Below, one piece after another: positions 9,547-29,360 of a DNA stretch of 32,000 nt. The first letter of the stretch is position 1, and every line of letters starts with the position of its first letter. This DNA is from an uncultured Actinomycetes bacterium (lineage in GTDB: Bacteria > Actinomycetota > Actinomycetes > S36-B12 > CAIYMF01): NCBI GenBank assembly GCA_963843975.1, contig CAWJMG010000003.1:2640001-2672000 (forward strand), read 5' to 3'. The translations under genes and the position numbers were made by a program. Under the pieces are notes generated by a model, which worked only from the letters and a program-made list of their open reading frames with translations, made no database searches and was not told the DNA's origin.

Positions 9547-9566
9547 GATGAAGATCGCATGAAGCC
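9547..9566 (-). promoter_or_regulatory. Direct-repeat box a (GGCTTCATgcgatCTTCATC on minus strand)
   Basis: ATGAAG at 9548-9553 and 9559-9564, 11-bp phasing. Lies in the copZ / sortase-like intergenic gap, 34 nt upstream of the 9512 start. Confidence 0.55.
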
Positions 9567-9572
9567 GCGTCC

Positions 9573-9594
9573 GGCCGACGAAGGGTGGTCGGCC
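9573..9594 (-). terminator. Stem-loop downstream of copZ
   Basis: GGCCGAC (9573-9579) pairs with GTCGGCC (9588-9594) around an 8-nt loop, ~18 nt after the copZ stop. No U-tract, as is common in high-GC actinobacteria. Confidence 0.45.
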
Positions 9595-9611
9595 TGGCGC
9601 GACTGGTCGGC

Positions 9612-9833
9612 TCAGGCCTGGGTGAGCTGGTAACCGGCCTCGTCGATGGCGCCTGCGACCGTGCCGCGTTCGAGGGGGTGGTCGCTGGTGACCGTGACGT
9701 GGGAGGTGCCGCCGGTGACGAGGTCGACCTCGACATGGGTGACGCCGGGCAGGGCGCCGACTTCCTCCTGGACGGAGGTGACGCAGTGTCCGCACGTCAT
9801 GCCGGTGACGGGGTAGGTGATGGTGGTGCTCAC
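9612..9833 (-). CDS. copZ: Copper chaperone, heavy-metal-associated domain
   Basis: 73 aa, MSTTITYPVTGMTCGHCVTSVQEEV...: a single HMA fold with the MTCxxC motif, immediately downstream of the Cu ATPase. Confidence 0.9.
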   Translation of the reverse strand: MSTTITYPVTGMTCGHCVTSVQEEVGALPGVTHVEVDLVTGGTSHVTVTSDHPLERGTVAGAIDEAGYQLTQA

Positions 9834-9856
9834 GGTCGACTTTCCCTTCGGTGGGG

Positions 9857-12127
9857 TCAGGCCGCAGTGCGGCCGGTGAAGCGGCGCAGCCGCAGGCTGT
9901 TGGTGACCACGAAGACCGACGAGAACGCCATGGCGGCGCCGGCGACGATCGGGTTGAGCAGGCCGGCGACGGCAAGAGGGATCGCGGCGACGTTGTAGGC
10001 GAAGGCCCAGAACAGGTTGCCCTTGATCGTGCGCAACGTTCGGCGCGAGAGCAGGACGGCGTCGGCGGCGGCCCGCAGGTCGCCGGTGACCAGTGTCAGG
10101 TCGCTGGCTTCGATGGCGACGTCGGTGCCGGTACCCATGGCGATGCCGAGGTCGGCCTGGGCGAGTGCGGCGGCGTCGTTGACGCCGTCGCCGACCATCG
10201 CCACGACGCGCCCTTGGGCCTGCAGCCGTTTGACGACGTCGACCTTGTCCCAGGGCAGGACCTCGGCGACGACCTCGTCGATGCCGACCTCCGCTGCGAC
10301 GGCTCGCGCGGCGCGGGCGTTGTCGCCGGTGAGGAGGACGGGGGTCAGCCCGAGGTCGCGCAGCTCGCCGATGGCCTGGGCGCTAGTCGACTTGACGGTG
10401 TCGGCGACGACGGCCAGGCCGCGCACGGCTCCGTCCCAGCCGATGGCGATAACGGTGCGGCCGAGGGCTTCGGCAGCGTCCTGGGCGTCGGCGAGGTGGG
10501 CGGGCATGGAGAGGGACCACTCGTCTCGCAGCCAGCCCGAACGCCCGGCGACCACGGCGTGCCCCTCGACGACGCCCTGAACACCGCGCCCTTGCGCGGA
10601 GGCGAACGACTCGACCGGGCTCAGGTCGCCGATCCGGGCACGGGCGCCCTCGGCGATGGCGGCGGCGATGGGATGCTCGGACGCGTCCTCCAGCGAGCCG
10701 CCGAGCCGCAGCAGCTCGGCCGGGGAGATGCCCTCGGACGGAAGGACCTCGATCAGCTGCATCGAGCCTGTGGTGATGGTGCCGGTCTTGTCGAGCACGA
10801 CGGTGTCGACGCGGCGGGTCGATTCGAGGATCTGCGGGCCCTTGATGAGGATGCCGAGCTGGGCGGCGCGTCCGGTGCCCACGAGCAGCGCGGTGGGAGT
10901 GGCCAGGCCGAGGGCGCACGGGCAGGCGATGATGAGGACGGCGACAGCAGCGGTGAACGCGAACTCGACGCTCTCCCCGGCCATCAGCCATCCGACCAGG
11001 GTGATCAGGGCGATCGCGATCACGACGGGGACGAACACCGCCGAGACCCGGTCGGCGAGCCGCTGCACCGGTGCCTTGCCGTTCTGGGCGTCGGCGACGA
11101 GCTTGGCCATCTGCGCCAGCTGGGTGTCCGAGCCGATCCGGGTCGCGCGAACGACGATCCGCCCGCCCTCGTTGACCGTCGCACCGACGACGGGGTCGTC
11201 GGGCCCGACCTCGACCGGAACCGGTTCGCCGGTCAGCATGCTGGTGTCGATCGCGGAGGCGCCCTCCACGACGACGCCGTCGGTCGCAACCTTTTCGCCC
11301 GGGCGCACGACGAACAGGTCGCCGACCGCGAGCTCGCTGACGGGGCGGCGGACCTCGGCGCCGTCGCGGAGCAGGGACACGTCCTTGGCGCCCATTCCCA
11401 GCAGGGCGCGCAAGGCCGCGCCGGAGCGGGACTTGGCGCGGGCCTCGAGGAACCGCCCGAGCAGGATCAGCGTGGTGACCGCCGCGGCGACCTCGAGGTA
11501 GATATGGGCCGAGGCCGTGTCGCGGCTCGGGATGAGCTCGAAGCCCATCGTCATCCCGGTCATCCCTGCGTCGCCGAAGAACAGCGCGTACAGGCTCCAG
11601 AGGTAGGCGGCCGACACCCCGATGCTGATGAGGGTGTCCATGGTCGCGGCGCCGTGGCGGGCGTTGGTGAACGCGGCCTTGTGGAACGGCCACGCGCCCC
11701 ACACCACGACCGGGGACGCGAGAGTGAGGGACAGCCACTGCCAGTTGGGGAACTGCAGCGCCGGGATCATCGCCATCGCCACGACCGGGACGGTCAGCAC
11801 AGCGGAGACCACCACGCGCTGGCGCAGGCTGGTGACCTCGGCCGGCTCTCGCTCGGCTGCTTCGTCGTCGCCGGAGCCGACATCGGACGGCGCGGCGGCC
11901 GGTGGTGGGGCTGCCGTGTATCCGGTGGCCTCGACCGCTGCCACGAGGTCGGCGATCTCCACGTCGGCCGGCGCCTGGACGCGGGCGATCTCGGTGGCGA
12001 AGTTGACCTCCGCGCTGACCCCGGGCAGCCGATTGAGCTTCTTCTCCACCCGTGCGGCGCACGAGGAGCAGGTCATGCCGCCGATCTTGAGGTCGACGAC
12101 GCGAGCCGGGTTGTCAGTGGTGCTCAT
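9857..12127 (-). CDS. copA: Cu(I)-translocating P1B-1 ATPase
   Basis: Start MSTTDNP (cat 12125-12127) behind GGAGG. HMA GMTCSSC, TM CPC ([13 protein letters not shown]), [31 protein letters not shown]. Overlaps the upstream ATPase stop by 14 nt. Confidence 0.93.
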
Positions 12128-14741
12128 GGCGATCCTCCGGCTCGCCGACGGCGACCGTCGTCGGCTGTGAAGTGACGGTAGCGACGGCGTCGGTTCCACG
12201 GCCGGCCACAGGGCGCCCGGGGTGCGCGACTGGCAGCCGCAGTCGCCGCAGCATGACCGCGTTGATGGCGACGATCGCCGACGAGCCGGACATCGTGAGG
12301 GCTGCGATCTCGGGGCGCAGCATGAGCCCGAAGGCGGGCTCGAAGACTCCGGCCGCGATCGGCAGCGCGATGGCGTTGTACCCGATCGCCCAGGCGAGGT
12401 TCTGCCTCATCTTTCGCACCGTGCCGCGACCGATGCGCAGAGCGACCGGGACGTCGAGGGGGTCCGACCGCATGAGGACGACGTCGGCGGTCTCGATCGC
12501 CACGTCGGTGCCCGCACCGATGGCGATGCCCAGGTCGGCGGCGGCAAGCGCCGGGGCGTCGTTGACGCCGTCGCCGACCATGGCGACCTTTCGGCCCTCC
12601 TGCTGCAGCCGGCGGATGTGGTCGGCCTTGCCGTCGGGCATCACGCCGGCGATCACGGTGTCAATGCCGAGGCCAGAGGCGATGCGGCGTGCTGTGGCCT
12701 CGTTGTCGCCGGTGAGCATGACCACCTCGACGCCGAGCTCGTGCAGCGCAGCGACGGCAGCGGGTGCAGTGTCCCGGGGTGCGTCGGCTAGGGCGAGGAC
12801 GCCGACGGCTGTGCTGCCGCGGCCGACCAGCACGGCGGTCCGACCGGACGCTGCCAGCTCCTCCCGGCGCTGCGCCAACAGCTCGGGTACGGCCATGCCC
12901 GCCTCGGCGAGCAGGGCCGCTGATCCGACCGCGACCGGCTCGCCCTCCACGTCGGCGGTAGCCCCCCGTCCGGGAACGTTACGGAAGCCGGTCGCGGTGA
13001 GCGACGGGGCGGCCTGCGCGTCGGCGTACCGGACCACGGCCTCGGCCAGCGGGTGCTCGGACTCCCGCTCCACGGCGGCCGCCCAGGCGAGGAGCTGGCT
13101 CGCGTCCAGCCCGTCGCCGGTCACGACGTCGGTGACCTCCGGCTCGCCCCGGGTGAGCGTGCCGGTCTTGTCCATCACGACCGTGTCGATGCCGGCGGAG
13201 GCCTCCAGTGCGGTGGCCGTCTTGATCAGGACCCCGCGCTTGGCGCCCATGCCCGTCCCGACCATGACGGCCGTCGGGGTCGCCAGGCCCAGGGCATCCG
13301 GGCAGGTGATGACGACGACGGTGATCGCGAACAGCAGCGCCTCGTTCGCAGGCCGGCCCAGCGCCAGCCACACCAGGAAGGTGCCGAGGCCGCCGATGAG
13401 GGCGACGAGAACGAGCCAGAACGCTGCCCGGTCCGCCAGCCGCTGACCCGGCGCCTTGGAGTTCTGCGCCTGCTGGACCAGAGCCACGATCTGGGCCAGG
13501 GCGGTGTCCTGGCCCACCTTGGTGGCGCGGACACGCAGCGACCCGGTCGTGTTGACGGTCGCGCCGATGACTGCCGACCCCGGCTCCTTGAGCACGGGGA
13601 CGCTCTCGCCCGTGACCGTGGATTCGTCGACCTCGGACGTCCCGTCCTCGACGACGCCGTCGACGGGCACCTTGGCGCCGGGCCGTACGAGCAGCAACTC
13701 GCCGACCTGCACCTGTGCGGTGTCGACCTCGACCCACTCGGTCCCGCGCTGCACCAGTGCCTTCGCCGGAGCGAGCTCCAGCAGGCTGCGGATAGCCTCG
13801 TTGGCGCCGCCGCGGGCACGCATCTCGAACCAGTGACCGAGCAGCACGAACGTGGTGAGCACCGCAGCGGCCTCGTAGAACACCTCGCCACCGCCGAACA
13901 GCGTGACTGCCAGGCTGTACAGCCAGCCCGCACCGATCGCCACAGCGACCAGTACCATCATGTCCAGTGTGCGTTGCCGCAGGGCCCGGGCTGCACCGTC
14001 GAAGAAGATCCACCCCGCCCAGAACACCACCGGCAAGCTGAGCAGCAGGGTGAACACGTCGTCGCGCAGCCCGAACGGGGCCGGGACCTCAAACCCGAGC
14101 ACCTCACGTCCGATCGGCGACCACAGCAGGATCGGCACCGACAGGGCCGCGGCCACCAGGAACCGGCGTCGCATGTCGGCGACCATGTCCGCCATCGACA
14201 TGCCCCCGTGGCCCCCATGCCCCATGGCGTCATGAGGGCTCGTCGCCGCCGGCGCGTGTCCGGTATGCGCCGAGTGGTCGCTGTCCGAAGCAGGCGCCTT
14301 GTCCGACGCACGCTCGGGGTGCTCGGGGTGCTCGGAGTGGTCGACGTTCTCGGCGTTCTCGGCGTTCTCGGCGTTCTCGGCGTTCTCGGCGTTCTCGGAA
14401 TGCTCGGAATGCTCGGCCTGCTCGGCCTGCGCCGCGTGCTGGCCGTGGGCGACGTGCGCCGCGGAGGCCTGCGGCGCCAGCGCTACCGGTTCGGTCATCG
14501 GGCTGCACACGTGGTCGGGCACGGATCGCCCGGAGCAGTGATACCCGCATTCGCGCACCCAGCCAGCCAGCTCCGTCAGCGACGTGATGTCGGAGTCGTA
14601 GGTGACCAGGGCGGTCTGGTTCAGGTTGTTGGCCGCCACGGCCTCCACCCCGGGGCGACCCCGAAGGGCCCGCTCCACCACATCCTCGCTCGTTGCCCAG
14701 TGCAGACCGGTGACCTCGAGCACCACCGTGTGTGTGGCCAT
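12114..14741 (-). CDS. CopB-like (P1B-3-like) heavy-metal P-type ATPase with CPD instead of CPH/CPC
   Basis: GAGGAG RBS. N-terminal HMA-like fold lacks CxxC ([11 protein letters not shown]). His-rich tail ...[12 protein letters not shown]...[25 protein letters not shown] is CopB-like. TM motif [12 protein letters not shown] (codons 13296-13304). [29 protein letters not shown]. Confidence 0.88.
14311..14429. repeat. In-frame 9-nt tandem array (13 units; five perfect gcgttctcg units)
   Basis: 'ctcgg' recurs every 9 nt from 14313 to 14421. It encodes the E-x-x periodic tract [37 protein letters not shown] of the CopB-like ATPase. Confidence 0.9.
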
Positions 14742-14785
14742 GACGCACTCCTCAACTCGCAGGACGGCTTACCCGCCTCAACTCA

Positions 14786-14802
14786 ATACCCTATGGGGGT
14801 AT
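14786..14802. promoter_or_regulatory. CsoR/RicR-type operator
   Basis: ATACCCTATGGGGGTAT fits TACCC-N5-GGGTA. As I recall, it is nearly identical to the B. subtilis copZA operator core TACCCTACGGGGGTA. Sits 45-61 nt upstream of the ATPase start. Confidence 0.65.
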
Positions 14803-14825
14803 GCCCCGTCATGGCGGGTTCAGGC

Positions 14826-14843
14826 GTGAAGATCTGATCAAGG
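14826..14843 (-). promoter_or_regulatory. Direct-repeat box b (degenerate: CCTTGATcagatCTTCAC on minus strand)
   Basis: GTGAAG at 14826-14831 and ATCAAG at 14837-14842, 11-bp phasing, just upstream of the CsoR-type operator. Confidence 0.4.
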
Positions 14844-14928
14844 CGAGCTACCGAAGGCACCGCCCCGTCCCCCTAAGGACGGACGCCTCGCACGGATCGC
14901 GCCCCCGGGTGGGCTGGAGGAGCTGAGC

Positions 14929-16311
14929 TCAACGAGGCGTAGGCAGGGCCTTGACGAGCGGAGCCTTCCCGAGTGGCGTGCGCTCGATCGCCGGAACCAG
15001 GAGCACATCGACGCGCGCGCGATCGACGCCGAGGTCTTCGAGCGCCCGCACGACGCGATCGTGTGCGAGGCGGTCCTGCGTCGCTCGACCGGCCAGACGG
15101 ACGACGAGGCCGTCGGCCATCTGCTCGACCTGCCAACCATCGGGGGCCAGCGACTCGAGCGCGCTGTGGAAGACCACCGGGTGCACACGCACCGCCCCCG
15201 CTGTACCCGGCAGGGTCAAGGTGTCCTCGGTGCGGCCCTCCACGGCCGCGAGCAGTGCGAAGGGGCGACCGCACCCGCAACTGCCAGGTGCCAGCCGGAC
15301 TGCGTCGGTGAGCTCGTAGCGGATCAGCGGCAGGGTTCGGGTGAACAGCGGTGTGACGAGGAGCCGCGTCCCCGCTGTACCCGGTGGAACCGGCCGATAG
15401 TCGTCGTCGACCGATTCGGCCAGCACGAAGTCCTCGTAGAGGTGCCACCCGCCCTGCTCGCACGTGGACGCGATGCTCGCGGTCTCAGTGGCGGCATAGG
15501 TGTCCACCACGACGCCGGTACCCCAGGCTCGCTCAGCGGCTGCGCGGCCGTCGGCCACCAGCACCTCCGATGCGGCGACAACTTTCGACGGCGCGATGCG
15601 GAGGTCTCCCTCCAGCTGTGCGCCCGCCAGGACACCCAGCATGGAGGCGTAGGAGACGAGGAGCCGAGGCTGGAACTCGTTCAGCGCCAAGACGAGTTCG
15701 CCCAGTGGTGTGCGTGCATCCAGACGCAGCGTCGGGACCAGGCGCGAGCTGAGGCTCGCCCCGACCACGGCCGACTGGTGCGTGGGATTGAGGGAGCTGA
15801 CGAAGGCGGCTCGGACCGGGTTGCGGAGGTCGATGCCGATGCCGGCCCAGTCGTTGACGCGGGCGTACGAGGTCAGGACCTGTGCCCACTCTGCCCTGTC
15901 CCACGCAAGCGCAGCGCGGCGCCCGGTGGTCCCTCCCGTGGCAGCAACCCACCAGCGCCCGCGCGACGCACGACCAGGCTCAAGCTGCCCTCGTTCCTCC
16001 TCGGCCAGCCGATCTACGACGTCGGCCAGACGGAGGGAAGGATTGGTGCAGATGCGGTCCCATTCGGCCATGAGCGTGTACTTGCTGAGCACAGGCAGCT
16101 CGTCCAGTGGAGCATTCCCGAGGCCCTTGAAGGCTGTCTGGTAAAAGGCGGAGTGGCGGGCGGCGTACGCGAGAAGCCGGGCAAGAGCCCGGTCCTGGTG
16201 CCGCAGCATTCGCTCACGGGGCCAGTGGTCGCGGCGCTGGGACCGCGATCGACCGGCAAGGACACGGGTCAGCAGCAGCGGATCGGGCCCCATCGCGACC
16301 TCCTGGCTCAC
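14929..16311 (-). CDS. Adenylate-forming enzyme, phenylacetate-CoA ligase (PaaK)/F390-synthetase-like family
   Basis: 460 aa with WWVAATGGTTGRRA (P-loop-like A3), TYAATE (A5), a conserved C-terminal lid and the overall PaaK-family layout. Substrate is not inferable. Confidence 0.6.
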   Translation of the reverse strand: MSQEVAMGPDPLLLTRVLAGRSRSQRRDHWPRERMLRHQDRALARLLAYAARHSAFYQTAFKGLGNAPLDELPVLSKYTLMAEWDRICTNPSLRLADVVDRLAEEERGQLEPGRASRGRWWVAATGGTTGRRAALAWDRAEWAQVLTSYARVNDWAGIGIDLRNPVRAAFVSSLNPTHQSAVVGASLSSRLVPTLRLDARTPLGELVLALNEFQPRLLVSYASMLGVLAGAQLEGDLRIAPSKVVAASEVLVADGRAAAERAWGTGVVVDTYAATETASIASTCEQGGWHLYEDFVLAESVDDDYRPVPPGTAGTRLLVTPLFTRTLPLIRYELTDAVRLAPGSCGCGRPFALLAAVEGRTEDTLTLPGTAGAVRVHPVVFHSALESLAPDGWQVEQMADGLVVRLAGRATQDRLAHDRVVRALEDLGVDRARVDVLLVPAIERTPLGKAPLVKALPTPR

Positions 16312-16364
16312 TCATCCGGTCCAGCGGCCACCTCTGCCCCGTGAGATCGAACGGGCTCCACTGT

Positions 16365-16391
16365 GGCATCGGCTCGTGAACGAGTGATGCC
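16365..16391 (-). terminator. Hairpin between NlpC/P60 and PaaK-like genes
   Basis: GGCATC-GG-CTCG tgaa CGAG-T-GATGCC (16365-16391). No U-tract. Confidence 0.35.
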
Positions 16392-16436
16392 GACCGAGGT
16401 GAAGGAACGACGAAGAACCGCACTTGCGGCGGCCGG

Positions 16437-17546: not shown

Positions 17547-17559
17547 GTTGAAACCTTCC

Positions 17560-17686: not shown

Positions 17687-17757
17687 TGTTGAGACGTTGG
17701 TTCGAACCTACCGTCCAGCCACGGCTCGGGAGAACTTCCGGGGCCCATCCGAGCGGA

Positions 17758-17777
17758 CCTTCATCGAACCTTCATGG
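17758..17777 (+). promoter_or_regulatory. Direct-repeat box c (CCTTCATcgaaCCTTCATGG)
   Basis: CTTCAT at 17759-17764 and 17770-17775. Its flank (CCATCCG.G.GG) is shared with box h. Confidence 0.6.
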
Positions 17778-17876
17778 TCACGAACGGCTCATCCGGCGGT
17801 TCTGACCGAGCCAGCTCGAGCCGTGCTCCGAGTCGCGCGCCCCCCAAGAGCAACGGCGGCGGAGTTTGAGGGCCGG

Positions 17877-18217: not shown

Positions 18218-18232
18218 AGAATCGATGAAGGC
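18212..18232 (-). promoter_or_regulatory. Direct-repeat box e (GCCTTCATcgatTCTTCATCC on minus strand)
   Basis: ATGAAG at 18214-18219 and 18225-18230, 86 nt upstream of the methyltransferase start. Confidence 0.55.
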
Positions 18233-21175: not shown

Positions 21176-22581
21176 TAGCTGCGGCCAACCGACCGTGTGC
21201 GGGCCAGGGTGATCACGAAGGGTCGCACTGGGTCATTCACTGTCTGTTCGTGCAGGATGTCGAGTCCGAGCGCACGCGCAGCGCGGCGGTGCAACGCCCG
21301 ACCGTCGGCGGCCCCGTGCAGCATGAGGAAGTCCCGCTGCTCGCCCGGCGTGGCTGCGAGAGAGCCGAGCGCATCGCGTATGGCCCGAGCGGTGACGAGG
21401 TAGTACAGGACCTCTGCGAGGACGACGCAGTGCGGTTGCTCGGCGTTCGCCAGCCGTGCGGCGACCTCGTCAGGCGGTACGACGTGGGCGTTGCCGAACC
21501 CCCGCGTCCTGCGACGGGCCACGTCTAGGGCTCGTGCGGAGACGTCGGTGCCCAGGACGATGGCCGCTGGGCAAGCCCGCGCCAGGGCCTCCACGTTGTG
21601 CCCGTCGGCGCAGCCGACCTCCACAATCGTCTTATAGCGTCCTCGTAGCGAGGCCACCAGATGCTGCTGCTTGCGCCGTTCGTAGGCAGCCGTGTAGTCC
21701 CACGGGTCAGCCGACACGGAAAACATGGAGTCGAATACGCGGCGGCGCACGAGTCCCCTGCTGGGTTCAGGTGCCAGCCCCAGCAAGGCGAACGCTGCCC
21801 GGTGGGCCAGCCGGGCGCCATCTCGCGCCAACGCGGAGTCCGAGTCGGGCGCCGGCACGGGCCGACGGGCGAGCATCAGCAGGACTGCCCCGCCGATCAA
21901 CCACCCGGCCCACCAGAGCACGACACCGGCCAGGCCGACATCGACCGGCAAGCCGGTCGCCCCTACAAGCAAGACGAGGGGGAAGGAGGCGAGCGCGACC
22001 CCGGCCTTCCATGAGGCGCCCAGGACGTGGACGAGCCGAGCGGCGATCACGATGGTTGCCACCTCGAACGGGATCAGTGCCGTTGCATCCGAGGCAGTCG
22101 CCACGCTTACTACAGCGGTGGTGATCGCGATCAGCACCGCCATCTCTGCGCTGATCGCCAGGCCGACCAGGTGCGGCGACCTACGTGCCGCGGTCGTACC
22201 TCGCACCTCGGTGCGCAATCCCCCCAAGCGGAGGACTGCAGCCGCGGACACGGTCACGGCGCCGATCGCGAGGAGCACGCCGATCGCCGTCCGATCGCCA
22301 CCCAGGACCACTGCTGAGGTGGAGGCCACGACAACCAGGACTGCGACGAGTGCCGCGTACGGCCTCGGCCTCGACACGACCGCCGGACCACCACCGGGCC
22401 GCCGAGCACGATGGGCGCCGGCGATCAACGCTTCAGGCCAGGTGAGGGCAGGCTCCATCGCCCGGGTGAGCAGTGCAGGCTCGGCCACCCTGGCGGCGGC
22501 GGAGGCAACGAGTGAAACGCCGACCAGCGCCTCGGAACGGACGACCAGGGCCGCCGCATCGACGAGCACCCACGCGCTCAC
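21175..22581 (-). CDS. Fusion protein: ~6-TM membrane domain + NodS-family SAM methyltransferase
   Basis: N-terminal ~270 aa has six hydrophobic helices. The C-terminal SADPWDYTAAYERRKQQHLV...IVEVGCADGHNVEALA...LGTDVSARALDVARRR matches the NodS-type DPW..Y..YE..K plus motif I. Coupled to genes on both sides (4-nt and 1-nt overlaps). Confidence 0.7.
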   Translation of the reverse strand: MSAWVLVDAAALVVRSEALVGVSLVASAAARVAEPALLTRAMEPALTWPEALIAGAHRARRPGGGPAVVSRPRPYAALVAVLVVVASTSAVVLGGDRTAIGVLLAIGAVTVSAAAVLRLGGLRTEVRGTTAARRSPHLVGLAISAEMAVLIAITTAVVSVATASDATALIPFEVATIVIAARLVHVLGASWKAGVALASFPLVLLVGATGLPVDVGLAGVVLWWAGWLIGGAVLLMLARRPVPAPDSDSALARDGARLAHRAAFALLGLAPEPSRGLVRRRVFDSMFSVSADPWDYTAAYERRKQQHLVASLRGRYKTIVEVGCADGHNVEALARACPAAIVLGTDVSARALDVARRRTRGFGNAHVVPPDEVAARLANAEQPHCVVLAEVLYYLVTARAIRDALGSLAATPGEQRDFLMLHGAADGRALHRRAARALGLDILHEQTVNDPVRPFVITLARTRSVGRS

Positions 22582-22904
22582 GAACGGTCCGCGCCGTGAC
22601 GGGCGGCTGCGGTGCCGCCTCGGGTGCTCACAGCGAACGAGCAGTCCACGATCACCATCTTCCCGGCCGCCCCCAGCGGCCTGAGAGCTTCGGCGAAACC
22701 GCCGGCGTAGCCAGCATCAGCCGGTTGCTTGTCCAGGAGCAGCGCCCGCCCGCACTCGCTGGCATCGATGTCGCCCGCGGCGACTCGGCGGTCGAGCAAC
22801 GGAAGCGGGGGCTCGAACGACCGACAGTGCGAGGGCCAGTTGGCAGCCCAGAGCACCGCCCGCACAGCAAGAGGGACCGCCGCTCCGGACAGAGGCAGCA
22901 TCAT
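22578..22904 (-). CDS. Hypothetical 108-aa protein, first gene of the MT-lnt operon
   Basis: Start MMLPLSG (cat 22902-22904) behind GAGGAG with 4-nt spacing. High GC3. Its PADAGYAGGF segment is faintly GT-A/DUF2064-like. The frame stays open upstream (see findings). Confidence 0.5.
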   Translation of the reverse strand: MMLPLSGAAVPLAVRAVLWAANWPSHCRSFEPPLPLLDRRVAAGDIDASECGRALLLDKQPADAGYAGGFAEALRPLGAAGKMVIVDCSFAVSTRGGTAAARHGADRS

Positions 22905-23018
22905 GCCGCTCCTCGACAGCCAGCCGTACCAGCCCCTCAACCCGCTTCTCCAGACATGTTTCCTCTCACCATTTGTCTGGTCAGCGTGAGCGAACGACGT
23001 CAAGCCCGGGCAGGGATT

Positions 23019-23039
23019 CGATGAAGATTCGACGAAGCC
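23019..23039 (-). promoter_or_regulatory. Direct-repeat box f (GGCTTCGTcgaaTCTTCATCG on minus strand)
   Basis: ATGAAG at 23021-23026 and ACGAAG at 23032-23037, 115 nt upstream of the 22904 start. Near-identical to box a. Confidence 0.55.
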
Positions 23040-23210
23040 GCAGGCGAGGCCGTGGCTCGGCTCGGTGGCCGGTCGGGGCAGTTCGAATCCGTCCGACGCC
23101 GCGCATGTCGGGTTCAGCGTGGTGATGCGCCGGCTGGCAGCCATCTTGGGCGAGGTGACAACGCTGTGCTCGGGGACATCCGTCACGGCCTCGACGACCG
23201 GCATGGTGCA

Positions 23211-23393: not shown

Positions 23394-24544
23394 TCAACTG
23401 TTCGCGGGTTGACCGGCCGTTGCTCCCTTTGCCGTTGCGGGCCGTCCCTCGGCGAGAGGGATGGTGAAGGTAAAAGTGGCGCCCAGGCCCGCGCCCTGAC
23501 TGTCCGCCACCAGACTGCCCCGATGATCGGTCACGATCGCTCTCGCGATTGTCAAGCCGAGCCCGCTGCCGCTCCCGTCCAAGCTTCGTCGAGAGCTATC
23601 CACCCGGTGGAACCGTTGGAACACCGATTCGAGCTGATCATCAGGGATCCCCTCACCGTTGTCGCTGACGGCGACCCACGCCCCGTCGCGGTCTTCGCTC
23701 ATGCGGACGCTGACGGCTCCCCCGGGTGAATGGCGGAGGGCGTTGTCCAGCAGGTTGGAGAGCACCTGCTGAAGCCTCACTGCGTCGGCATCGACCGTGA
23801 CCTCCCACGGGGAAAGTTCGAGGGACAGGGCCACCCCTGCCGCTTCGTAGCGTGGCCGCGCCGCCGCCACGGAACCGGAAACGATGTGATTGAGGCTGGT
23901 GGGCTCCAGGTGGATGCCCAGCGCGTGCTCCTCGGCCAGTGCGACCTCACGCAGGTCACCGGACAGGCGCCGCAGCCGCTCGATCTGCTCGCGCATCGTG
24001 GCGTACGACGGCGCGTCGCCCGCCACGACACCGTCCTCGAGGCCGTCGACGTATGCCTCGAGTGTCGCCAGCGGAGTTCGCAGTTCGTGGGCGAGGTCCG
24101 ACAGCAGACTGCTGCGGCTCGTCTCACTGTCTGCGGCTTGTGAGCCATTCGTTCGAACGCGTCGGTGAGCCGCTCGATCTCGCTGCTGAAGGGGTCCACC
24201 GGAACGCTCACGTCGAACCTGCCCGATGCGAGGGTCTCGGCGGCGTCGGCCAACTCTTCCACCGGGTGCGCGACGCGACGGACGATGAACCACGACACCA
24301 GGAACGCCGCGACCAACGAGACGCCGGTCGCGACCAGCAAGGAGATCGCGAACGAAGTAGCGAAGGCCTGCTCGGCGTGCTGCAGGACGGTCGGGGAATC
24401 CTCACCCGTTTCGGCGAGGTGATGATGAAAGAGTCCAGGGCCGACGATCACCGCGGACCCGATCAGTGCGGCAGCGCCCGCGCCTATGACCAGGGTCTGG
24501 GCTGCCATCAGCCGCCGGGCGAGGCTCGGTCGCTGCCCGTTCAT
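23394..24544 (-). pseudogene. Sensor histidine kinase (CopS-like architecture), interrupted by a -1 frameshift
   Basis: The N-terminal frame (ATG 24544, ATGA overlap with the RR stop) has TM1, the loop GPGLFHHHLAETGEDSPTVLQHAEQ, TM2 and HAMP ...EIERLTDAFERMAHK. The H-box LLSDLAHELRTPL plus N, G1 (DNGEGI) and G2 (GSGLGL) boxes are in another frame. Span is 1151 nt, not a multiple of 3. Junction is ~24126-24139. Confidence 0.75.
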
Positions 24545-25245
24545 CCCCGACCCATCCCATAGCCGACGCCGCGGACGGTTCGGACGAACCGGGGCTCGTT
24601 TGCCTCGTCGCCGAGCTTCTTGCGCAGGTGCCCGATGTGGACGTCCACGACGTGCTCGTCCCCGTACCACTCGCCGCCCCAAACACCTTCGATGAGCTGG
24701 CGACGGGAAAAGGCCGCGTGGGGTCGTGCGGCCATAACCGCAAGGAGGTCGAACTCGGTGCGTGTGAGCTCGACGTCGCCGCCGTCGACCAAGACGACCC
24801 GGGCCTCGGGATCGATAACGAGCCCACCGACGGTAAGTGGGGGCCGGTCCTGCTGCTCCTCCTTCTGCCGAGGCCGACGCAGCATTGCTTTGGTGCGGGC
24901 GATCAACTCGCGTGGCGAGAACGGCTTCACGATGTAGTCGTCCGCGCCGACTGCTAGGGCGACCACCTTGTCCGTCTCGTCGTCTCGAGCGGTGAGCATG
25001 ATGACATAGGCGTCGGTGAATTCGCGGACACGCCGGCACACCTCTACCCCGTCGAATCCAGGCAGCATGAGGTCCAGCACGATCAGGTCCGGCCGGGTCG
25101 CGGCGGCCTGCGCCACCGCGCTAGGACCGTCGTGGGCCAGGATGACGACAAATCCCTCCTTCTCCAGGTAGCTCGCGACGATCTTGGCCAGCGGTACCTC
25201 GTCGTCCACGACCAGCACAGTTCCCTGGGAGTCCAGCACGCGCAT
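24541..25245 (-). CDS. OmpR/PhoB-family response regulator
   Basis: MRVLDSQGTVLVVDDE...DLIVLDLMLPGFDG...ADDYIVKPFSPRELIAR plus a winged-helix C-terminus (ELTRTEFDLL...VRGVGYG). An alternative GTG start lies at 25275. Confidence 0.9.
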   Translation of the reverse strand: MRVLDSQGTVLVVDDEVPLAKIVASYLEKEGFVVILAHDGPSAVAQAAATRPDLIVLDLMLPGFDGVEVCRRVREFTDAYVIMLTARDDETDKVVALAVGADDYIVKPFSPRELIARTKAMLRRPRQKEEQQDRPPLTVGGLVIDPEARVVLVDGGDVELTRTEFDLLAVMAARPHAAFSRRQLIEGVWGGEWYGDEHVVDVHIGHLRKKLGDEANEPRFVRTVRGVGYGMGRG

Positions 25246-25326
25246 CTCCTCTGTCTCGTTCACGCATCTCACCACCCGAAGACCGGATGAGACAGCCCCA
25301 GCCCCCTCGACGCCTCAGAAGACATG

Positions 25327-25348
25327 GGATCTTCATCCTGCGCCCCGG
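25327..25348 (-). promoter_or_regulatory. Half-box i with a flank shared with box g (CCGGGGCGCAGGATGAAGATCC on minus strand)
   Basis: A single ATGAAGATCC unit plus the same CCGGGGCGCA flank as box g, ~80-100 nt upstream of the RR start. Confidence 0.35.
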
Positions 25349-25351
25349 TCG

Positions 25352-26200
25352 CTACCCGGCTCCGCGGACGTTGACGGACCCTGTTGGATCGGAAGGCGAC
25401 GGGCTCGACGTGGAGCGCGGGCGCGACGGGTACCCGGTGTCGAAGTGCATGTAGTCGGGAACCTTGATGTCCTGCCAGACCCATCCGCGCGCGGTGAACA
25501 GGTCGACGACTGCGGACCCGGCGCGGATGACGCCACCGCCTTCGGTTGCGCGCGCGTAGCGGGTCGAAGGCACCCAGCACGCGCAACGCGGGTCCTTCCA
25601 AGGGTTCTGGAGCGGATTGATGTCCACGGCGCGGCCGTTCGCGTGTGGCGAGTCCGCTACAGGCGCGTTGATCTGGCTGGCGCGTCGGCAGTTGAAGGCG
25701 GAGGTGTTGTTGGCGCGCAGGCTCCGATAGACGTCGCCCCCGAACCGCTCCACCGGATCCATTCGCTCGATGGGGAAGCCGACCTGGAAGAGTGACGAGA
25801 AGATCGTCACCATGTCGGCTGCGCTGTCGGCATGGACTATGAGTTGGCCGCGCCCGATGCCGCCCTGGAACGTGTGGAAGTTGATGTCGACCCGTCGCAG
25901 GTCCACCTGTCCGACGGGGCAGCCGGACCGCCAGGTGCCGCTCTTGACGACCGTCTCCCATTGGCGATCCGAGATGCGGCTGACCGTCGCATCCGCCTGC
26001 ACCGGCCGCGTCGGTGATTTCGTCGGGGACACGTCCTGCGTGAAGGCTGGCGTGCCGGAAGTCCCCTCGGTTGCCGGATAGGTCGACCCACCGCCAGTTG
26101 GACGCCCTGTGGATGACACCAGCCAAGCGCCCACGGCTGCGACAATCACAACGGCCACGACCAGCGCGGTCCCGACCCGCACCCGTGTGGCCCGATTCAT
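25352..26200 (-). CDS. M15-family zinc D,D-/L,D-peptidase (VanY/LdcB-like), membrane-anchored
   Basis: Start MNRATRVRVGTALVVAVVIV (ATGA overlap with the GNAT stop). Zn ligands SPHANGRAVDI (H-x6-D) and PDYMHFD. Confidence 0.8.
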   Translation of the reverse strand: MNRATRVRVGTALVVAVVIVAAVGAWLVSSTGRPTGGGSTYPATEGTSGTPAFTQDVSPTKSPTRPVQADATVSRISDRQWETVVKSGTWRSGCPVGQVDLRRVDINFHTFQGGIGRGQLIVHADSAADMVTIFSSLFQVGFPIERMDPVERFGGDVYRSLRANNTSAFNCRRASQINAPVADSPHANGRAVDINPLQNPWKDPRCACWVPSTRYARATEGGGVIRAGSAVVDLFTARGWVWQDIKVPDYMHFDTGYPSRPRSTSSPSPSDPTGSVNVRGAG

Positions 26201-26883
26201 CGCCGCTCGGTTCCGTCCAGGCACTTCACCATCCGTACTAGTCGACGTCCGTCGCGACTCGTGGCCTCGTCCTCCGTAGTCCATCCCCGTCGCTGGTACA
26301 GCCCGGTTGCCACCGTGTTGACCGTCTCGTTGACCAGGTGAACCCTGGAGGCTCCGGACGCTGCGGCTTGCTGGAGGAAGGTGTCATGAAGTGCTGATCC
26401 GGCGCCCCGCAGGCGGTGACCTGGTGCCACGAAGATGGACAGAAGCTCGGCTGACCTCATCTCGCCTTCCGTCCGTTCGCCGCGAGTGTCGCCGCCGGCA
26501 CGGACTCCTCGGGCCAGTCGACGCAGGTACCACAGCGACCACACCCGCAGGAACTCCCCCCACAGTCCGGGGCGACGACGCAGGGCGGCGGCGCTCGCCC
26601 GCGCCAACGGCGACGCTGCGTGCCGGGCCTTGTGCGTGCGAAGCCGCTCGTCGTCCAGGGAGCCGAGCAAGTAACCGATCACCAGGCCCGTGCGAGGGTC
26701 CACGGCGGAGAAGGACGCAACGGCGGGGGACTTCAGGTGCTCACGTACGTCACTGACCATGAAGTCGGGACCGAGCCGTGAGTAGAAGCAGTGCGGGAAG
26801 TTCTGGAGGTGCCACTCCACCACCGCGGGTACGTCCACGGGGCGCATGGGCCTCACCTGCACGACGGTGCTGCGTTCGATCAT
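26197..26883 (-). CDS. GNAT-family N-acetyltransferase
   Basis: Start MIERSTVVQVRPM (cat 26881-26883, GGAG upstream). Acetyl-CoA motif IFVAPGHRLRGAGSAL and C-terminal LYQRRGW. The ORF could extend to 26961. Confidence 0.7.
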   Translation of the reverse strand: MIERSTVVQVRPMRPVDVPAVVEWHLQNFPHCFYSRLGPDFMVSDVREHLKSPAVASFSAVDPRTGLVIGYLLGSLDDERLRTHKARHAASPLARASAAALRRRPGLWGEFLRVWSLWYLRRLARGVRAGGDTRGERTEGEMRSAELLSIFVAPGHRLRGAGSALHDTFLQQAAASGASRVHLVNETVNTVATGLYQRRGWTTEDEATSRDGRRLVRMVKCLDGTERR

Positions 26884-27011
26884 GCGCGTGCTCCAGTGGG
26901 CGCGAAAGCAGGGACCGGAACGGCAACGATGCAGCCGCCATTCGAGCGCGGAACGCCTCACCCACCGGTAAGGAGAGCCTCACACGAGCCCGCACCCAGG
27001 ACGGCCGGGGC

Positions 27012-27032
27012 GCATGAAGGTTCGATGAAGAT
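27012..27032 (-). promoter_or_regulatory. Direct-repeat box g (ATCTTCATcgaaCCTTCATGC on minus strand)
   Basis: ATGAAG at 27014-27019 and 27025-27030, in the divergent gap between the GNAT-M15 genes and the M23 peptidase gene. Confidence 0.6.
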
Positions 27033-27194
27033 CCTTGCAGTCGCTGCCTGCGCTTCCACTCGGAGCAGGAGCCGATACTCCATTCCCTGCAGGCTATATC
27101 AGCGGATCGCCCAATGCGCGGGGTGAGTGCTACGGTGCCATCCGTCACGTCACCGACGCGATGCAGGAGAGGGACGCCGAGTGCTGCCCGCCCA

Positions 27195-27342
27195 CTCCTG
27201 CCGAGTTCTGCGCACCGCTTTGGGCAGGAGTGGGGGACCCACGTAGCGGACGCCCACCCAGGCGCCTAGGGGTGAAGCAGGGCGCAGCCCTGCCGGTCAG
27301 GATCCGACGACCGAACCCGACAGCTAACCCCGCAGGCGAGTC
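27195..27342 (+). promoter_or_regulatory. c-di-AMP riboswitch (ydaO-yuaA class) in the M23 peptidase leader
   Basis: CCUGCCGAGUUCUGCGCAC...GGAGUGGGGGACCCACGUAGCGGACGCCCACCCAGGCGCCUAGGGGUGAAGCAGGGCGCAGCCCUGCCGGUCAGGAUCCGACGACCGAACCCGACAGCUAACCCCGCAGGCGAGUCGGGAAGAGG. It has the same conserved blocks as the 17560-17686 copy. P1 is CCUGC/GCAGG, followed by the RBS and ATG 27356. Confidence 0.85.
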
Positions 27343-27355
27343 GGGAAGAGGTCCC

Positions 27356-28153
27356 ATGGATTCGTCACGTCGAGACGCCCGCCGATTCGGCCGCATCGGC
27401 TCGATCGCACTCACCACCGGTGTGCTGACAGGGCTTCTCGCCTTGTCCGGCGCAGCCGTACCGGCCTCCGCCGCACCATCTCCGAGCGGAACGCACCAGG
27501 TGGCGCGACCTGCCTGGGCGACCATGCCCGCCCTGGAACCAGGCGCACAAGGCCGGGCGGTGCAGGTTCTGCAGGGTCGACTCGGCGTGATCCAGTCCGG
27601 ATGGTACGGACCGATCACGCTGCGCAAGGTCAAGGCCTTCCAGTCCAGCAGGGGGCTTCGGGCTGCGGGCTATGTGGGTCCTCTCACCTGGCGTGCCCTG
27701 CTCACCATCCCCAGCAGGGACGCGACGGCGTCCCGCTCGTCGACGCGGTCCGCGATGCCAGCTGGCCGCGTCTGCCCGGCTCCGGGCGCGGGATTCGGGC
27801 AGGGATGGGGAGTGCCTCGCGCCGGCGGGAGGCTCCACCAGGGAGTGGACATGCCGGGACGCCGCGGCAGCGCCATCGTTGCGATCGAAGACGCCAGGGT
27901 GCTGCGCGAGGGGCGCCAGAGCAACGGGGCCCTACGCATCGTCCTTCAGGGCTCGAGCGGCGCCAAGTTCTACTACGGTCACATGGACAAGGACCTCGTC
28001 CGGCCTGGCCAGCGCGTGGCCCGCGGCCAGAAGATCGGTCTGATGGGTGATAGCGGGAGTCCTGGCGCGGTCCACCTGCACTTCGAGTACTGGCGCTCTG
28101 GTGGCGAGTCTGCGGCAGTCGATCCAGCAGCGCTGCTGCGCAGCATCTGCTGA
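27356..28153 (+). CDS. M23 metallopeptidase with N-terminal peptidoglycan-binding domain
   Basis: Start MDSSRRDARRFG behind GGGAAGAGG. Signal peptide, PG_binding_1-like GRAVQVLQGRLGV...GPLTWRALL, and M23 motifs HQGVDM and GDSGSPGAVHLHFE. Confidence 0.85.
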   Translation: MDSSRRDARRFGRIGSIALTTGVLTGLLALSGAAVPASAAPSPSGTHQVARPAWATMPALEPGAQGRAVQVLQGRLGVIQSGWYGPITLRKVKAFQSSRGLRAAGYVGPLTWRALLTIPSRDATASRSSTRSAMPAGRVCPAPGAGFGQGWGVPRAGGRLHQGVDMPGRRGSAIVAIEDARVLREGRQSNGALRIVLQGSSGAKFYYGHMDKDLVRPGQRVARGQKIGLMGDSGSPGAVHLHFEYWRSGGESAAVDPAALLRSIC

Positions 28154-28202
28154 CTCCGGCTGGCCGCGGGGCACCGCCCCCGTCCCGTGGCCAGCCGGGC
28201 AC

Positions 28203-28221
28203 GTTGACCGAACCTTCACAG
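28203..28221 (+). promoter_or_regulatory. Weak direct-repeat box j (GTTGACcgaaCCTTCACAG)
   Basis: The second unit CCTTCAC is good. The first unit GTTGAC matches only 3/6 and could equally be a -35 hexamer. Confidence 0.3.
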
Positions 28222-28303
28222 GCTGGCCGCGGAGATCGATACCCGAGCCCCCGATGGTGGAGACCGGAGATCGGCGAAGGGTCGGTCCCGCTCGGGAGTG
28301 ATC

Positions 28304-28891
28304 ATGATCAGCCACGACGGACCAGCCACCCGCCAGTTCGAGGAGCCGTCCGCCCGGACCAGCCCGCGCGCCCGCCGTCCCCGACGGCCGGTTCGGTCGA
28401 TCTCACCCGCAAGTGCTGGCATTGGGCTCCTCGCGACTGCGGCCATGGCGACGCTCTACGTCACCGTGCTCACGTGGGCGTCAGGATGGGGCCATGTCGG
28501 CGACCAGTTGCGCGCGTCGGGTCCGCTCGTGCCGGTGCTCTGGGTCGTCTTCGGGGTCCAGGTGGCCTTGATAGCCGATCTGCGTAGAAGGGCCCACCCC
28601 ACTGGTGGTGCGACGGCAGTCGATGCAGCGGGGGCGGGCGCGACCACCGTGGGCATGCTCGCCTGCTGCGCTCACCACGCCGTCGAGCTGCTTCCCCTCG
28701 CCGGCCTGGCTGGCGCTGCAGGTGTCGTCGCCGGGGCTCAACAGCAATTGCTGTACCTCGCTCTCGCGGTCAGCTTGGCGGGACTCGTCTGGACCGCGCA
28801 CCGATGGAGCCGGGCTGGGCACGCCGTGCCCTCCGAAGCCTTTACAGTTCCCACCGAGCGCAAGGATGCGATGCTCGCATGCGATCGTTGA
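28304..28891 (+). CDS. 4-TM membrane protein with intramembrane CCAHH motif
   Basis: ATG 28304 behind GGGAG (GTG 28298 also possible). Four predicted helices, the third carrying TTVGMLACCAHHAVELLP. No family recognised. Confidence 0.55.
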   Translation: MISHDGPATRQFEEPSARTSPRARRPRRPVRSISPASAGIGLLATAAMATLYVTVLTWASGWGHVGDQLRASGPLVPVLWVVFGVQVALIADLRRRAHPTGGATAVDAAGAGATTVGMLACCAHHAVELLPLAGLAGAAGVVAGAQQQLLYLALAVSLAGLVWTAHRWSRAGHAVPSEAFTVPTERKDAMLACDR

Positions 28892-29310
28892 CGATTCGCA
28901 CCCTGGTGGCACTCATCGCGAGTCTGGGACTTGCAGCCTGCGGGTCGGCTCCTGCGGCTATCACTACTGGAACTGCCACTGGGACGCTGCCGACCCAGTC
29001 GCAGGAGGCTGACGGAGTAACCGTCTCCGTCACACAGGCGCGCCTGACCCCGGACGCCGCTACCTTCGATGTCGATCTGACCGCCCACGCCGGCGAGCTG
29101 TCGAGCGATCTCACCACATCGCTGCTCACCGTGGACGGAACCAGTTGGGGTACCGCCACCTACGTCGGCGACGGGCCCGGCGGACACCATCGCAGCGGGA
29201 CCATAACGTTCGTCGGCCGCCGCCCGACCGCTGGGAAGGTGGTGCTGAGCATCCCCGCCGCCGCGGGGTCGGTAACCTTCCGCTGGACGAGCGGCCCCGC
29301 AGCAAGCTAA
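28879..29310 (+). CDS. Lipoprotein with His pair (GPGGHH), unknown function
   Basis: MRSLTIRTLVALIASLGLAAC|GS lipobox. Beta-rich mature part with TAHAGEL and GDGPGGHHRSGTITF. Overlaps the preceding gene by 13 nt. Confidence 0.6.
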   Translation: MRSLTIRTLVALIASLGLAACGSAPAAITTGTATGTLPTQSQEADGVTVSVTQARLTPDAATFDVDLTAHAGELSSDLTTSLLTVDGTSWGTATYVGDGPGGHHRSGTITFVGRRPTAGKVVLSIPAAAGSVTFRWTSGPAAS

Positions 29311-29340
29311 CGAGGGTCGGCTCGTCCATCCGCGGTCGCA

Positions 29341-29360
29341 CCTTCATCAAACCTTCATGG
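29341..29360 (+). promoter_or_regulatory. Direct-repeat box h (CCTTCATcaaaCCTTCATGG)
   Basis: CTTCAT at 29342-29347 and 29353-29358, 42 nt upstream of the predicted resA start. Confidence 0.6.

Follow-up and report, generated by a model that had tools for sequence, protein, structure and literature searches.

To our knowledge, the two-component system CopRS has been characterised experimentally in Corynebacterium glutamicum only, with a single operator. That system is copper-responsive, and its operator TGAAGATTTgaTGAAGATTT, established by electrophoretic mobility shift assays and mutagenesis, is the sole such site in that genome (Schelder et al. 2011; PMC3140484). Here we describe a set of short direct repeats, or boxes (CTTCAT-N5-CTTCAT; ATGAAG-N5-ATGAAG on the other strand), in 32,000 nucleotides of DNA from an uncultured Actinomycetes bacterium (contig CAWJMG010000003.1, positions 2,640,001 to 2,672,000; hereafter the window). 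An OmpR-family response regulator is encoded among them (24541-25245). Judging from the sequences, the boxes are probably operators of this regulator, which would belong to the same subfamily as C. glutamicum CopR. On islands and plasmids of high-GC actinobacteria, among them plasmid pRHL3 of Rhodococcus jostii RHA1, what appears to be the same pair of regulator and operator is widespread. It usually governs several promoters with a rigid directional architecture, which provides a sequence-only rule for predicting copper regulons.

Boxes and regulator of the window

A sequence-only reading of the window had listed nine boxes, and all nine are present within 1-2 nt of where it placed them. The pattern ATGAAG-N5-ATGAAG matches the window seven times with at most one mismatch, against 0.01 expected from dinucleotide shuffles, and nine times with at most two mismatches, against 0.33. 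A 25-nt position weight matrix (PWM), trained on 76 distinct sites from other genomes only with the window excluded, returned eight window sites scoring at least 14 compared with a null mean of 0.05; one of these, box k at 16399, was absent from the earlier list. No PWM match of 8 or more was found in the window left of 9548, in agreement with the earlier remark that the left 8.4 kb holds no repeat with this phasing. All eight strong sites are non-coding, located within the approximately 15% non-coding part of the segment right of the tRNA-Gly gene, and they span 9.5-29.4 kb. The shuffles and the PWM trained on other genomes rule out chance or coding bias as the origin of the boxes. Terminal repeats of a mobile element are also ruled out, as no extended flanking similarity was observed except the paralogy of c and h. 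The sites are as follows.

Box a: 9548-9564, minus strand, CTTCATGCGATCTTCAT; PWM 21.6; 35 nt upstream of the ATG at 9512
Box b: 14826-14842, minus strand, CTTGATCAGATCTTCAC; PWM 18.6; upstream of ATPase2-ATPase1-CopZ
Box k: 16399-16415, minus strand, CTTCGTCGTTCCTTCAC; PWM 16.0; in the gap between the NlpC/P60 stop and the AMP-ligase-like gene
Box c: 17759-17775, plus strand, CTTCATCGAACCTTCAT; PWM 35.5; points into a ccdA relic
Box e: 18214-18230, minus strand, CTTCATCGATTCTTCAT; PWM 32.6; overlaps the stop codon of the ccdA relic
Box f: 23021-23037, minus strand, CTTCGTCGAATCTTCAT; PWM 30.4
Box i (weak): 25320; PWM 8.5; essentially a half-site
Weak match inside the GNAT coding sequence: 26375-26391, CTTCATGACACCTTCCT, one mismatch; PWM 8.7
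Box g: 27014-27030, minus strand, CTTCATCGAACCTTCAT; PWM 32.2
Box j (weak): 28203-28219, plus strand, GTTGACCGAACCTTCAC; PWM 11.2
Box h: 29342-29358, plus strand, CTTCATCAAACCTTCAT; PWM 33.0

Taken over the window and its relatives, the box consensus is ATGAAG(A/G)(T/A)TCGATGAAG, a direct repeat with a TGAAGATTT-like half-site and an 11-bp phase. The unit of a functional box is a head-to-tail 11-bp pair with the consensus (A/T)(A/T)C(C/G)ATGAAG(A/G)(T/A)TCG ATGAAG. The match at 26375-26391, some 175 nt ahead of the M15 start, is probably not functional, given its low PWM score and the absence of a -10 at the canonical offset (see below). At box f, gene callers run a 208-aa open reading frame (ORF; 22578-23204, minus strand) across the box. 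This ORF is probably mis-called, and comparison with the 83-aa small protein of L002 (L-numbers denote the loci or contigs with relatives of the regulator that were compared with the window) indicates that the real gene is its 120-aa C-terminal part, starting at the TTG at 22940. The membrane segment of this 120-aa SHOCT-like protein is unusually poor in hydrophobicity.

The spacing of the half-sites had suggested the operator geometry of the OmpR/PhoB family, with a regulator of that kind encoded at 24541-25245, and the gene indeed encodes receiver and Trans_reg_C domains (Pfam Response_reg, 1.4e-29; Trans_reg_C, 6.2e-26). It falls under the cut-off of every NCBIfam equivalog. The sequence-only reading had also likened the unit to the C. 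glutamicum CopR site, and the site it gave agrees with the published operator (PMC3140484). We scanned metagenome contigs for the exact 20-mer TGAAGATTTgaTGAAGATTT; in about 20 contigs of approximately 65% GC it precedes a regulator-kinase-ATPase cluster by 59 nt, just as in the published arrangement. With the Corynebacterium-type CopR of these contigs the window regulator shares 55% identity (234 bits, E 2e-82), and the closest regulators solved in the PDB score lower (RegX3, 184 bits; MtrA, 177 bits). The partner kinase, whose gene carries a 1-nt deletion in this record (see below), contains HAMP, HisKA and HATPase domains and a short, His-rich loop, GPGLFHHHLAETGEDSPTVLQHAEQ (VGPGLFHHH...LQHAEQ), whose beginning resembles that of the CopS sensor loop (VGPGLFHHH in the window kinase, VGPTLFHDH in CopS).

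The likeness to C. glutamicum CopRS extends from the OmpR-type regulator and adjacent HAMP-HisKA kinase with its short His-rich loop to the operator, a direct repeat of 11-bp phase with a TGAAG(A/G)TT core, and to autoregulation, here predicted. Furthermore, a copper P-type ATPase, an HMA protein and one resembling thioredoxin are among the targets in C. glutamicum and among the predicted ones here. Both regions are high in GC, that of the window also being apparently horizontally acquired, and a separate cytoplasmic CsoR pathway exists, for which the evidence in the window is a CsoR-type operator. The systems differ in scale: one operator per genome serves two divergent operons in C. glutamicum, whereas the window holds 8-11 boxes and its relatives typically 2-6 per locus. 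The window has no multicopper oxidase, and its additional genes encode Lnt, M15/GNAT, a sortase-fold and an AMP-ligase-like protein, and the complete ResA-CcdA-ResB set. CutRS was also compared, because the box-less Streptomyces regulators of our locus set are approximately 60% identical and CutR is a characterised Streptomyces OmpR-type regulator. Like the window pair, CutRS is an actinobacterial OmpR-type two-component system, but its motif is TAWATAAA and it controls secretion stress (PMC12802291). With this motif, and with no box at the loci of the approximately 60%-identical Streptomyces regulators, CutR was rejected as the closest relative.

Footprints in relatives and a directional promoter layout

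Phylogenetic footprinting, which the sequence-only reading had proposed, was strongly positive. The set comprised 80 loci from species-representative genomes with regulators 53-77% identical to that of the window, and 86 boxes with at most one mismatch were found in 1.12 Mb around these homologues, against approximately 0.35 expected when scaled from the window shuffles. Where the regulator is at least 63% identical, a box lies no more than 650 bp upstream of its gene in 27 of 31 loci; below 63%, a box is present in 13 of 39. In three of the four exceptions (L001-L003, the closest relatives) the box is found further upstream because the regulator sits inside a longer box-driven operon, as in the window, and L025 has no box. 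The Streptomyces and Actinoplanes loci of the set contained no box.

On plasmid pRWAY03 of Rhodococcus sp. WAY2, boxes precede SHOCT-RR-HK (RR, response regulator; HK, histidine kinase) and a multicopper oxidase (MCO) gene; on pRHL3 one box lies between SHOCT-MCO and RR-HK and another before the ATPase cluster. Box-driven genes in the relatives encode multicopper oxidases, DUF305 lipoproteins, DUF6803 proteins, P1B-ATPases and, followed by a P1B-ATPase, a DsbD_2 protein fused to a cupredoxin domain. A small 'MMGWY...' SHOCT-domain membrane protein is found behind the box and usually precedes the regulator; members of this family in L012 and L084 give weak Pfam SHOCT matches. The box-associated copper genes of the window encode two HMA P1B-ATPases, CopZ and a ResA-like redoxin. 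A variant box, CCTCAAGATTCCGTGAAGA, was observed in L087, Kocuria rosea plasmid NZ_CP126484.1, which encodes a 59%-identical regulator-kinase pair in the vicinity of genes for an M23 peptidase and for cytochrome oxidase assembly.

The boxes are directional. Among 116 distinct sites from relatives scoring at least 20 with the PWM, 105 have an xAnnnT hexamer starting 32 nt (48 sites) or 33 nt (57 sites) past the box in the CTTCAT direction, typically GATGCT, GACACT, GACGCT or TAGCCT. Other offsets in this direction mostly account for 0-7 sites, with two reaching 11-14, and in the ATGAAG direction there is no comparable -10 peak, no offset exceeding 13 of 116. The stretch in which a -35 would be expected is not conserved among these sites. 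Start codons follow at consistent distances in the relatives; that of the SHOCT gene, for instance, comes after 69 nt and has a good ribosome-binding site. A consensus scan of the island for sigma-70 promoters and terminators gave nothing useful except a hairpin at 8779-8817; no canonical promoter was detected, which fits the expectation of activator-dependent promoters. The layout, taken together with the behaviour of CopR in C. glutamicum, suggests such a promoter, with the regulator as its putative activator. An ECF-type (extracytoplasmic function) promoter, in which GGAAC-like bases after the box would serve as the -35, was rejected since these lie approximately 27 nt from the -10.

Operators of the PhoB (pho-box) class are built from head-to-tail 11-bp direct-repeat units, have no usable -35 and activate in an orientation-dependent manner; the paired 11-bp repeats, the missing -35 and the orientation dependence are all shared by the boxes described here. 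In that class the box lies about 10 bp from the -10 and takes the place of the -35, whereas the core box here ends 32-33 nt from the -10, approximately two helical turns further upstream. The contact with RNA polymerase therefore probably differs from that of the pho-box class.

In the window the canonical combination of box and -10 at 32 or 33 nt is found at b, f, g, h, j and k, and a is a conserved variant with closer spacing.

Box a promoter: GATGCC, 9519-9524, offset 23, 6 nt before the ATG at 9512; sortase-fold gene; conserved in L208-L210
Box b promoter: -10 TAGGGT, 14788-14793, offset 32; ATPase2-ATPase1-CopZ; conserved in L001, L003, L084, L208 and L209
Box k promoter: -10 CACAGT, 16360-16365, offset 33; AMP-ligase-like gene; conserved in L084 and L209
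Box f promoter: -10 CACGCT, 22983-22988, offset 32; SHOCT-like-methyltransferase (MTase)-Lnt; conserved in L002
Box g promoter: -10 GAGGCT, 26976-26981, offset 32; GNAT-M15-RR-HK; counterpart in same-sequence contigs only
Box j promoter: -10 GATGGT, 28253-28258, offset 33; membrane protein-lipoprotein; no clear counterpart found
Box h promoter: -10 TAGCCT, 29392-29397, offset 33, 9 nt to the ATG at 29407; ResA-CcdA-ResB; conserved in L208

At box a the -10-like hexamer lies one helical turn nearer than the canonical position, and the arrangement of box, 35 nt and ATG is kept before the orthologue in L208, L209 and L210. Box a thus appears to be a conserved variant, and its transcript is probably leaderless. 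In L084 and L209 the counterpart of box k precedes a SHOCT gene and then the AMP-ligase orthologue, which in L084 is 68% identical and located between SHOCT and ATPase2; by its promoter layout the AMP-ligase-like gene of the window is also predicted to be box-driven. L002 has the same box followed by a small protein-MTase-Lnt operon, as at window box f. Box g is the predicted autoregulatory promoter of GNAT-M15-RR-HK. The TAGCCT-N9-ATG arrangement of box h recurs in L208 before CcdA-ResB, and in L209 and L210 a box precedes Glrx-like-DsbD-Redoxin.

Boxes c and e point toward each other across the ccdA relic, which was recognised by tblastn with the window's own CcdA (residues 19-54, E 8e-6), and neither has a -10 at offset 32 or 33. 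Between 17745 and 17777 the surroundings of box c share 86% identity with those of box h. In the syntenic L208 a box-c equivalent with TAGCCT at offset 33 precedes an intact CcdA-ResB, divergent from riboswitch-NlpC/P60. Box c is therefore probably an operator left behind by a second ccdA-resB copy that has decayed. For box e no counterpart was found in the relatives compared and no target is assigned; both boxes are probably orphans.

The box b promoter carries a second candidate operator. A CsoR type-2-like site, ATACCCCCATAGGGTAT (14786-14802, minus strand; TAC-X9-GTA), covers its -10. This G-tract pseudopalindrome, which precedes a copZA-type operon, agrees with the CsoR consensus of streptomycetes, ATATACCCCTNAGGGGTATAT (PMC3902906), and the 23-nt gap between box b and the palindrome is the same in five lineages (L001, L003, L084, L208 and L209). 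The fusion of a CsoR operator into a CopR-type promoter sets the window apart from C. glutamicum CopRS. No csoR gene was noticed among the window ORFs examined, small ORFs not having been scanned systematically for CsoR; Rhodococcus plasmid loci carry csoR nearby. The conserved pairing of the two operators at ATPase promoters makes the integration of periplasmic and cytoplasmic metal signals at one promoter testable.

The strict box-N32/33--10 spacing of the relatives is not seen in the Corynebacterium-type region, and since this region breaks the rule, the promoter grammar is not universal in the family. We also tried to place a CopR-dependent promoter of Corynebacterium on the side of the small ORF/cg3286 by the new grammar; no -10 occurs there at 32 or 33, so this rule does not solve the puzzle of 2011. 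On the copR side, L164 (3304-3390) and approximately 20 similar metagenome contigs carry GATACT 7 nt upstream of the copR ATG, 50 nt from the box in the ATGAAG direction. This suggests that the copR mRNA is leaderless in the Corynebacterium-type region, which might explain the unmapped transcription start in the 2011 study.

Proposed circuit, envelope cargo and alternatives

Window genes were mapped by third-codon-position GC (GC3) and Pfam, and NCBIfam was also searched. Those associated with boxes are listed below.

8874-9512, minus strand: secreted protein with a predicted sortase-like fold (hereafter sortase-fold protein), behind box a; ATG at 9512
9612-14741, minus strand: copper-efflux operon ATPase2-ATPase1-CopZ, behind box b
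9612-9833, minus strand: CopZ-like HMA chaperone (Pfam HMA; MTCGHC motif)
9857-12127, minus strand: P1B-ATPase 1 (Pfam HMA, E1-E2_ATPase, Hydrolase)
12114-14741, minus strand: P1B-ATPase 2 (Pfam HMA, E1-E2_ATPase, Hydrolase)
14929-16293, minus strand: AMP-ligase-like (F390-synthetase-related) protein, behind box k (NCBIfam partial matches)
17859-18222, plus strand: ccdA relic, truncated and degenerate (tblastn with the window's CcdA)
19583-22940, minus strand: operon SHOCT-like-MTase-Lnt, behind box f
19583-21175, minus strand: Lnt, apolipoprotein N-acyltransferase (Pfam LNT_N and CN_hydrolase)
21175-22581, minus strand: NodS-like methyltransferase-domain protein (Pfam NodS/Methyltransf)
22578-22940, minus strand: SHOCT-like small membrane protein (TTG start; homology to the L002 small protein)
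23394-26883, minus strand: operon GNAT-M15-RR-HK, behind box g
23394-24544, minus strand: histidine kinase (HAMP, HisKA and HATPase domains)
24541-25245, minus strand: OmpR-type response regulator (Pfam Response_reg and Trans_reg_C)
25352-26200, minus strand: M15_4 peptidase (Pfam)
26197-26883, minus strand: GNAT acetyltransferase (Pfam; start at 26883 according to the gene caller used on L081)
28298-28891, plus strand: membrane protein with a CCAHH motif, behind box j
28879-29310, plus strand: lipoprotein, behind box j
From 29407, plus strand: ResA-CcdA-ResB (Pfam Redoxin, DsbD_TM, ResB)

In the proposed circuit, the partner kinase would sense extracytoplasmic copper through its short His-rich, CopS-like extracytoplasmic loop and phosphorylate the regulator. 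With the core 17-bp box at about -62 to -46 and the -10 at -12 to -7, a dimer of the phosphorylated regulator would recruit RNA polymerase. It would then activate its own operon, GNAT-M15-RR-HK, and also ATPase2-ATPase1-CopZ, the AMP-ligase-like gene, SHOCT-like-MTase-Lnt, membrane protein-lipoprotein, ResA-CcdA-ResB and the sortase-fold gene. At the ATPase promoter, efflux would require both an outside signal, passed on by the two-component system, and an inside signal, the release of CsoR. We infer that copper is the signal and that the regulator activates, and likewise infer exactly where transcription starts. As a broader and more tentative proposal, a mobile CopRS-type island may have recruited envelope-maintenance enzymes (Lnt, M15 with GNAT, the sortase-fold Cys/His protein and ResA-CcdA-ResB) under one copper sensor, with an AND-gate-like pump promoter that combines CopR-type activation and CsoR de-repression.

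The sequence-only reading had placed copper ATPases, three classes of peptidoglycan hydrolase, Lnt, a sortase-like protein and the resA-ccdA-resB thiol relay under one regulator. Control by the boxes is supported for the ATPases with CopZ, Lnt, M15, the thiol relay and the sortase-like protein, but not for NlpC/P60 and M23, and three hydrolase classes was an overstatement, as only M15 lies in a box-driven operon. Regulation of NlpC/P60 and M23 by boxes c and g was rejected: these genes have c-di-AMP riboswitches of their own and lie on the ATGAAG side of the boxes, where there is no general -10 peak, and the box-c equivalent in L208 drives CcdA-ResB. They are riboswitch-controlled divergent neighbours and not supported as regulon members. 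A side observation concerns the NlpC/P60 leader, whose best -10 candidate is separated from the ATGAAG end of the box by exactly 48 nt both in the window (17700-17760, minus strand; TAGGTT) and in L208 (1317-1400; TAGAGT). The sequence between is not conserved, and two cases make no rule. The view that a regulon of this composition was undescribed also went too far, as its core (copper ATPase, thioredoxin-like protein and autoregulation) is already known for CopRS. That reading had, besides box k, overlooked the strict orientation of the boxes and their spacing to a -10, the CsoR operator at box b, the small SHOCT-like gene behind box f and the deletion in the kinase gene. This kind of regulon being known, what is worth following is the promoter grammar, the CopR-box/CsoR hybrid promoter and the envelope cargo on a mobile copper island. 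If the grammar is true, it would let CopR regulons be read from sequence across genomes, plasmids and metagenome-assembled genomes of Actinomycetota.

The sortase-fold protein (8874-9512) has no sequence match in Pfam, NCBIfam or the PDB. Its AlphaFold2 model has a block-mean pLDDT of at least 90 over residues 111-210, and the top Foldseek matches in the PDB are all sortases, albeit weak ones (E 2.5e-3, TM 0.35-0.53). In an alignment of 19 homologues His142 and Cys197 are invariant and Arg209 is near-invariant. The family has no existing annotation, and in the window, L208, L209 and L210 its gene always follows CopZ in a copper island.

Two published findings parallel the envelope cargo. In Listeria and Enterococcus, the lipoprotein-acylation genes lit2-lgt2 lie on a mobile copper element and are induced by copper (Armbruster et al. 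2019, as cited in PMC8275575), and copper binds the free N-terminus of diacyl lipoproteins (PMC8275575). The window shares with lit2-lgt2 a lipoprotein N-acylating enzyme on a mobile copper island, co-regulated with copper-resistance genes; it differs in that the enzyme there is Lit and not Lnt, the phylum and regulator are others, and the link in the window is predicted from promoter architecture only. The thioredoxin-like tlpA of C. glutamicum is among the targets of CopR, and the copper stimulon of that species includes cytochrome c maturation genes (PMC3140484). The cargo of Lnt, sortase-fold family and thiol relay fits this independent evidence that copper disturbs lipoprotein maturation, and nominates envelope targets of copper. 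If the proposal is true, the island would reveal where copper attacks the actinobacterial envelope, namely at lipoprotein N-termini, Cys-dependent transpeptidation and thiol-dependent cytochrome maturation, and cells would carry inducible spare parts for these steps.

Several observations weigh against the assignment of the boxes to a CopR-type copper circuit. The case for orthology with CopR is made by 55% identity, by context and by the similarity of the operators, and not by a phylogeny. Of the best-scoring boxes, three (a, c and e) show no -10 where the canonical spacing would put it, the -10-like hexamers mostly start with G and not T, and GATGCC at box a has no final T. The Corynebacterium-type region has no canonical -10 at offset 32 or 33 on either side of its box. 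Multicopper oxidase and DUF305, the hallmark targets in relatives, are absent from the window. Finally, a 1-nt deletion near 24135 splits the kinase gene of this record into two frames (AAGC-CGCAG vs AAGCTCGCAG); signalling may be broken here, or the record may be in error.

The deletion bears on the alternative that survives best, albeit an unlikely one, in which the operators are genuinely CopR-type but the circuit is decaying or inactive in this genome and the boxes are largely fossils. The broken kinase frame would fit such decay, as would the ccdA relic, the lack of a -10 at boxes c and e, and an in-frame stop at 19185-19187 in a membrane-protein ORF. However, L081 and L082, two independent Logan assemblies that are 99.985% identical over 6.6 kb with the single-base gap, encode an intact 383-aa kinase, and the deletion is therefore perhaps strain-specific or an error. 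In addition, six boxes retain box and -10 at the exact spacing, and the target ORFs are otherwise intact with high GC3.

We consider it quite improbable that the same regulator and boxes answer instead to envelope or thiol-disulfide stress, as an envelope-repair regulon that includes the copper pumps incidentally. The cargo is rich in envelope functions (M15, Lnt, the sortase-fold protein and ResA-CcdA-ResB), and the absence of multicopper oxidase and DUF305 would also fit. Against this, the box-driven genes of the relatives overwhelmingly encode copper proteins, the characterised homologue responds to copper (PMC3140484), the sensor loop keeps its His cluster, and the ATPase promoter is co-wired with a CsoR-type operator. 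Finally, the repeats might serve another DNA-binding protein or form a family of mobile-element or recombination repeats, but we rate this as very improbable. The acquired look of the segment (tRNA-Gly boundary, GC drop, and the integrase and TrwC relaxase beside the L084 system) and the inverted boxes c and e around a degenerate segment might point that way. Against it, the boxes accompany the regulator gene in dozens of lineages, hold to one orientation and to a spacing of 32-33 nt from the -10, match an experimentally defined CopR site and have no transposase, target-site duplication or extended repeat beside them.

Setting of the segment and neighbouring features

The window is high-GC actinobacterial DNA, with 72-77% GC left of the tRNA-Gly gene and 66-72% right of it. 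The remaining features are as follows.

8465-8537: tRNA-Gly(CCC); the GC drop and the copper segment begin directly after it
16437-17546, minus strand: NlpC/P60
17551-17688, minus strand: c-di-AMP riboswitch upstream of NlpC/P60 (Rfam RF00379, 84.9 bits)
18318-18878, plus strand: methyltransferase (Pfam; this corrects the gene assignment of the sequence-only reading)
27189-27352, plus strand: c-di-AMP riboswitch upstream of M23 (Rfam RF00379, 58.7 bits)
27356-28153, plus strand: M23 peptidase (start placed after the riboswitch and not at the long-ORF start, 27035)

The broken membrane-protein-like frame (18879-19457, plus strand) follows the methyltransferase gene; its GC3 is high, an in-frame TGA at 19185-19187 breaks it, and it is possibly a pseudogene. 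No direct repeat of the tRNA-Gly 3' end was found in the window, and no integrase lies within it. The whole segment right of tRNA-Gly nevertheless seems to behave like an acquired copper island. At its tRNA-proximal end, directly downstream of the sortase-fold gene, lies a strong terminator-like hairpin (8779-8817, minus strand) of 16 pairs, 12 of them G-C. In L084 a tyrosine integrase, a TrwC relaxase and an HTH_17 protein (11850-16860) adjoin the same system.

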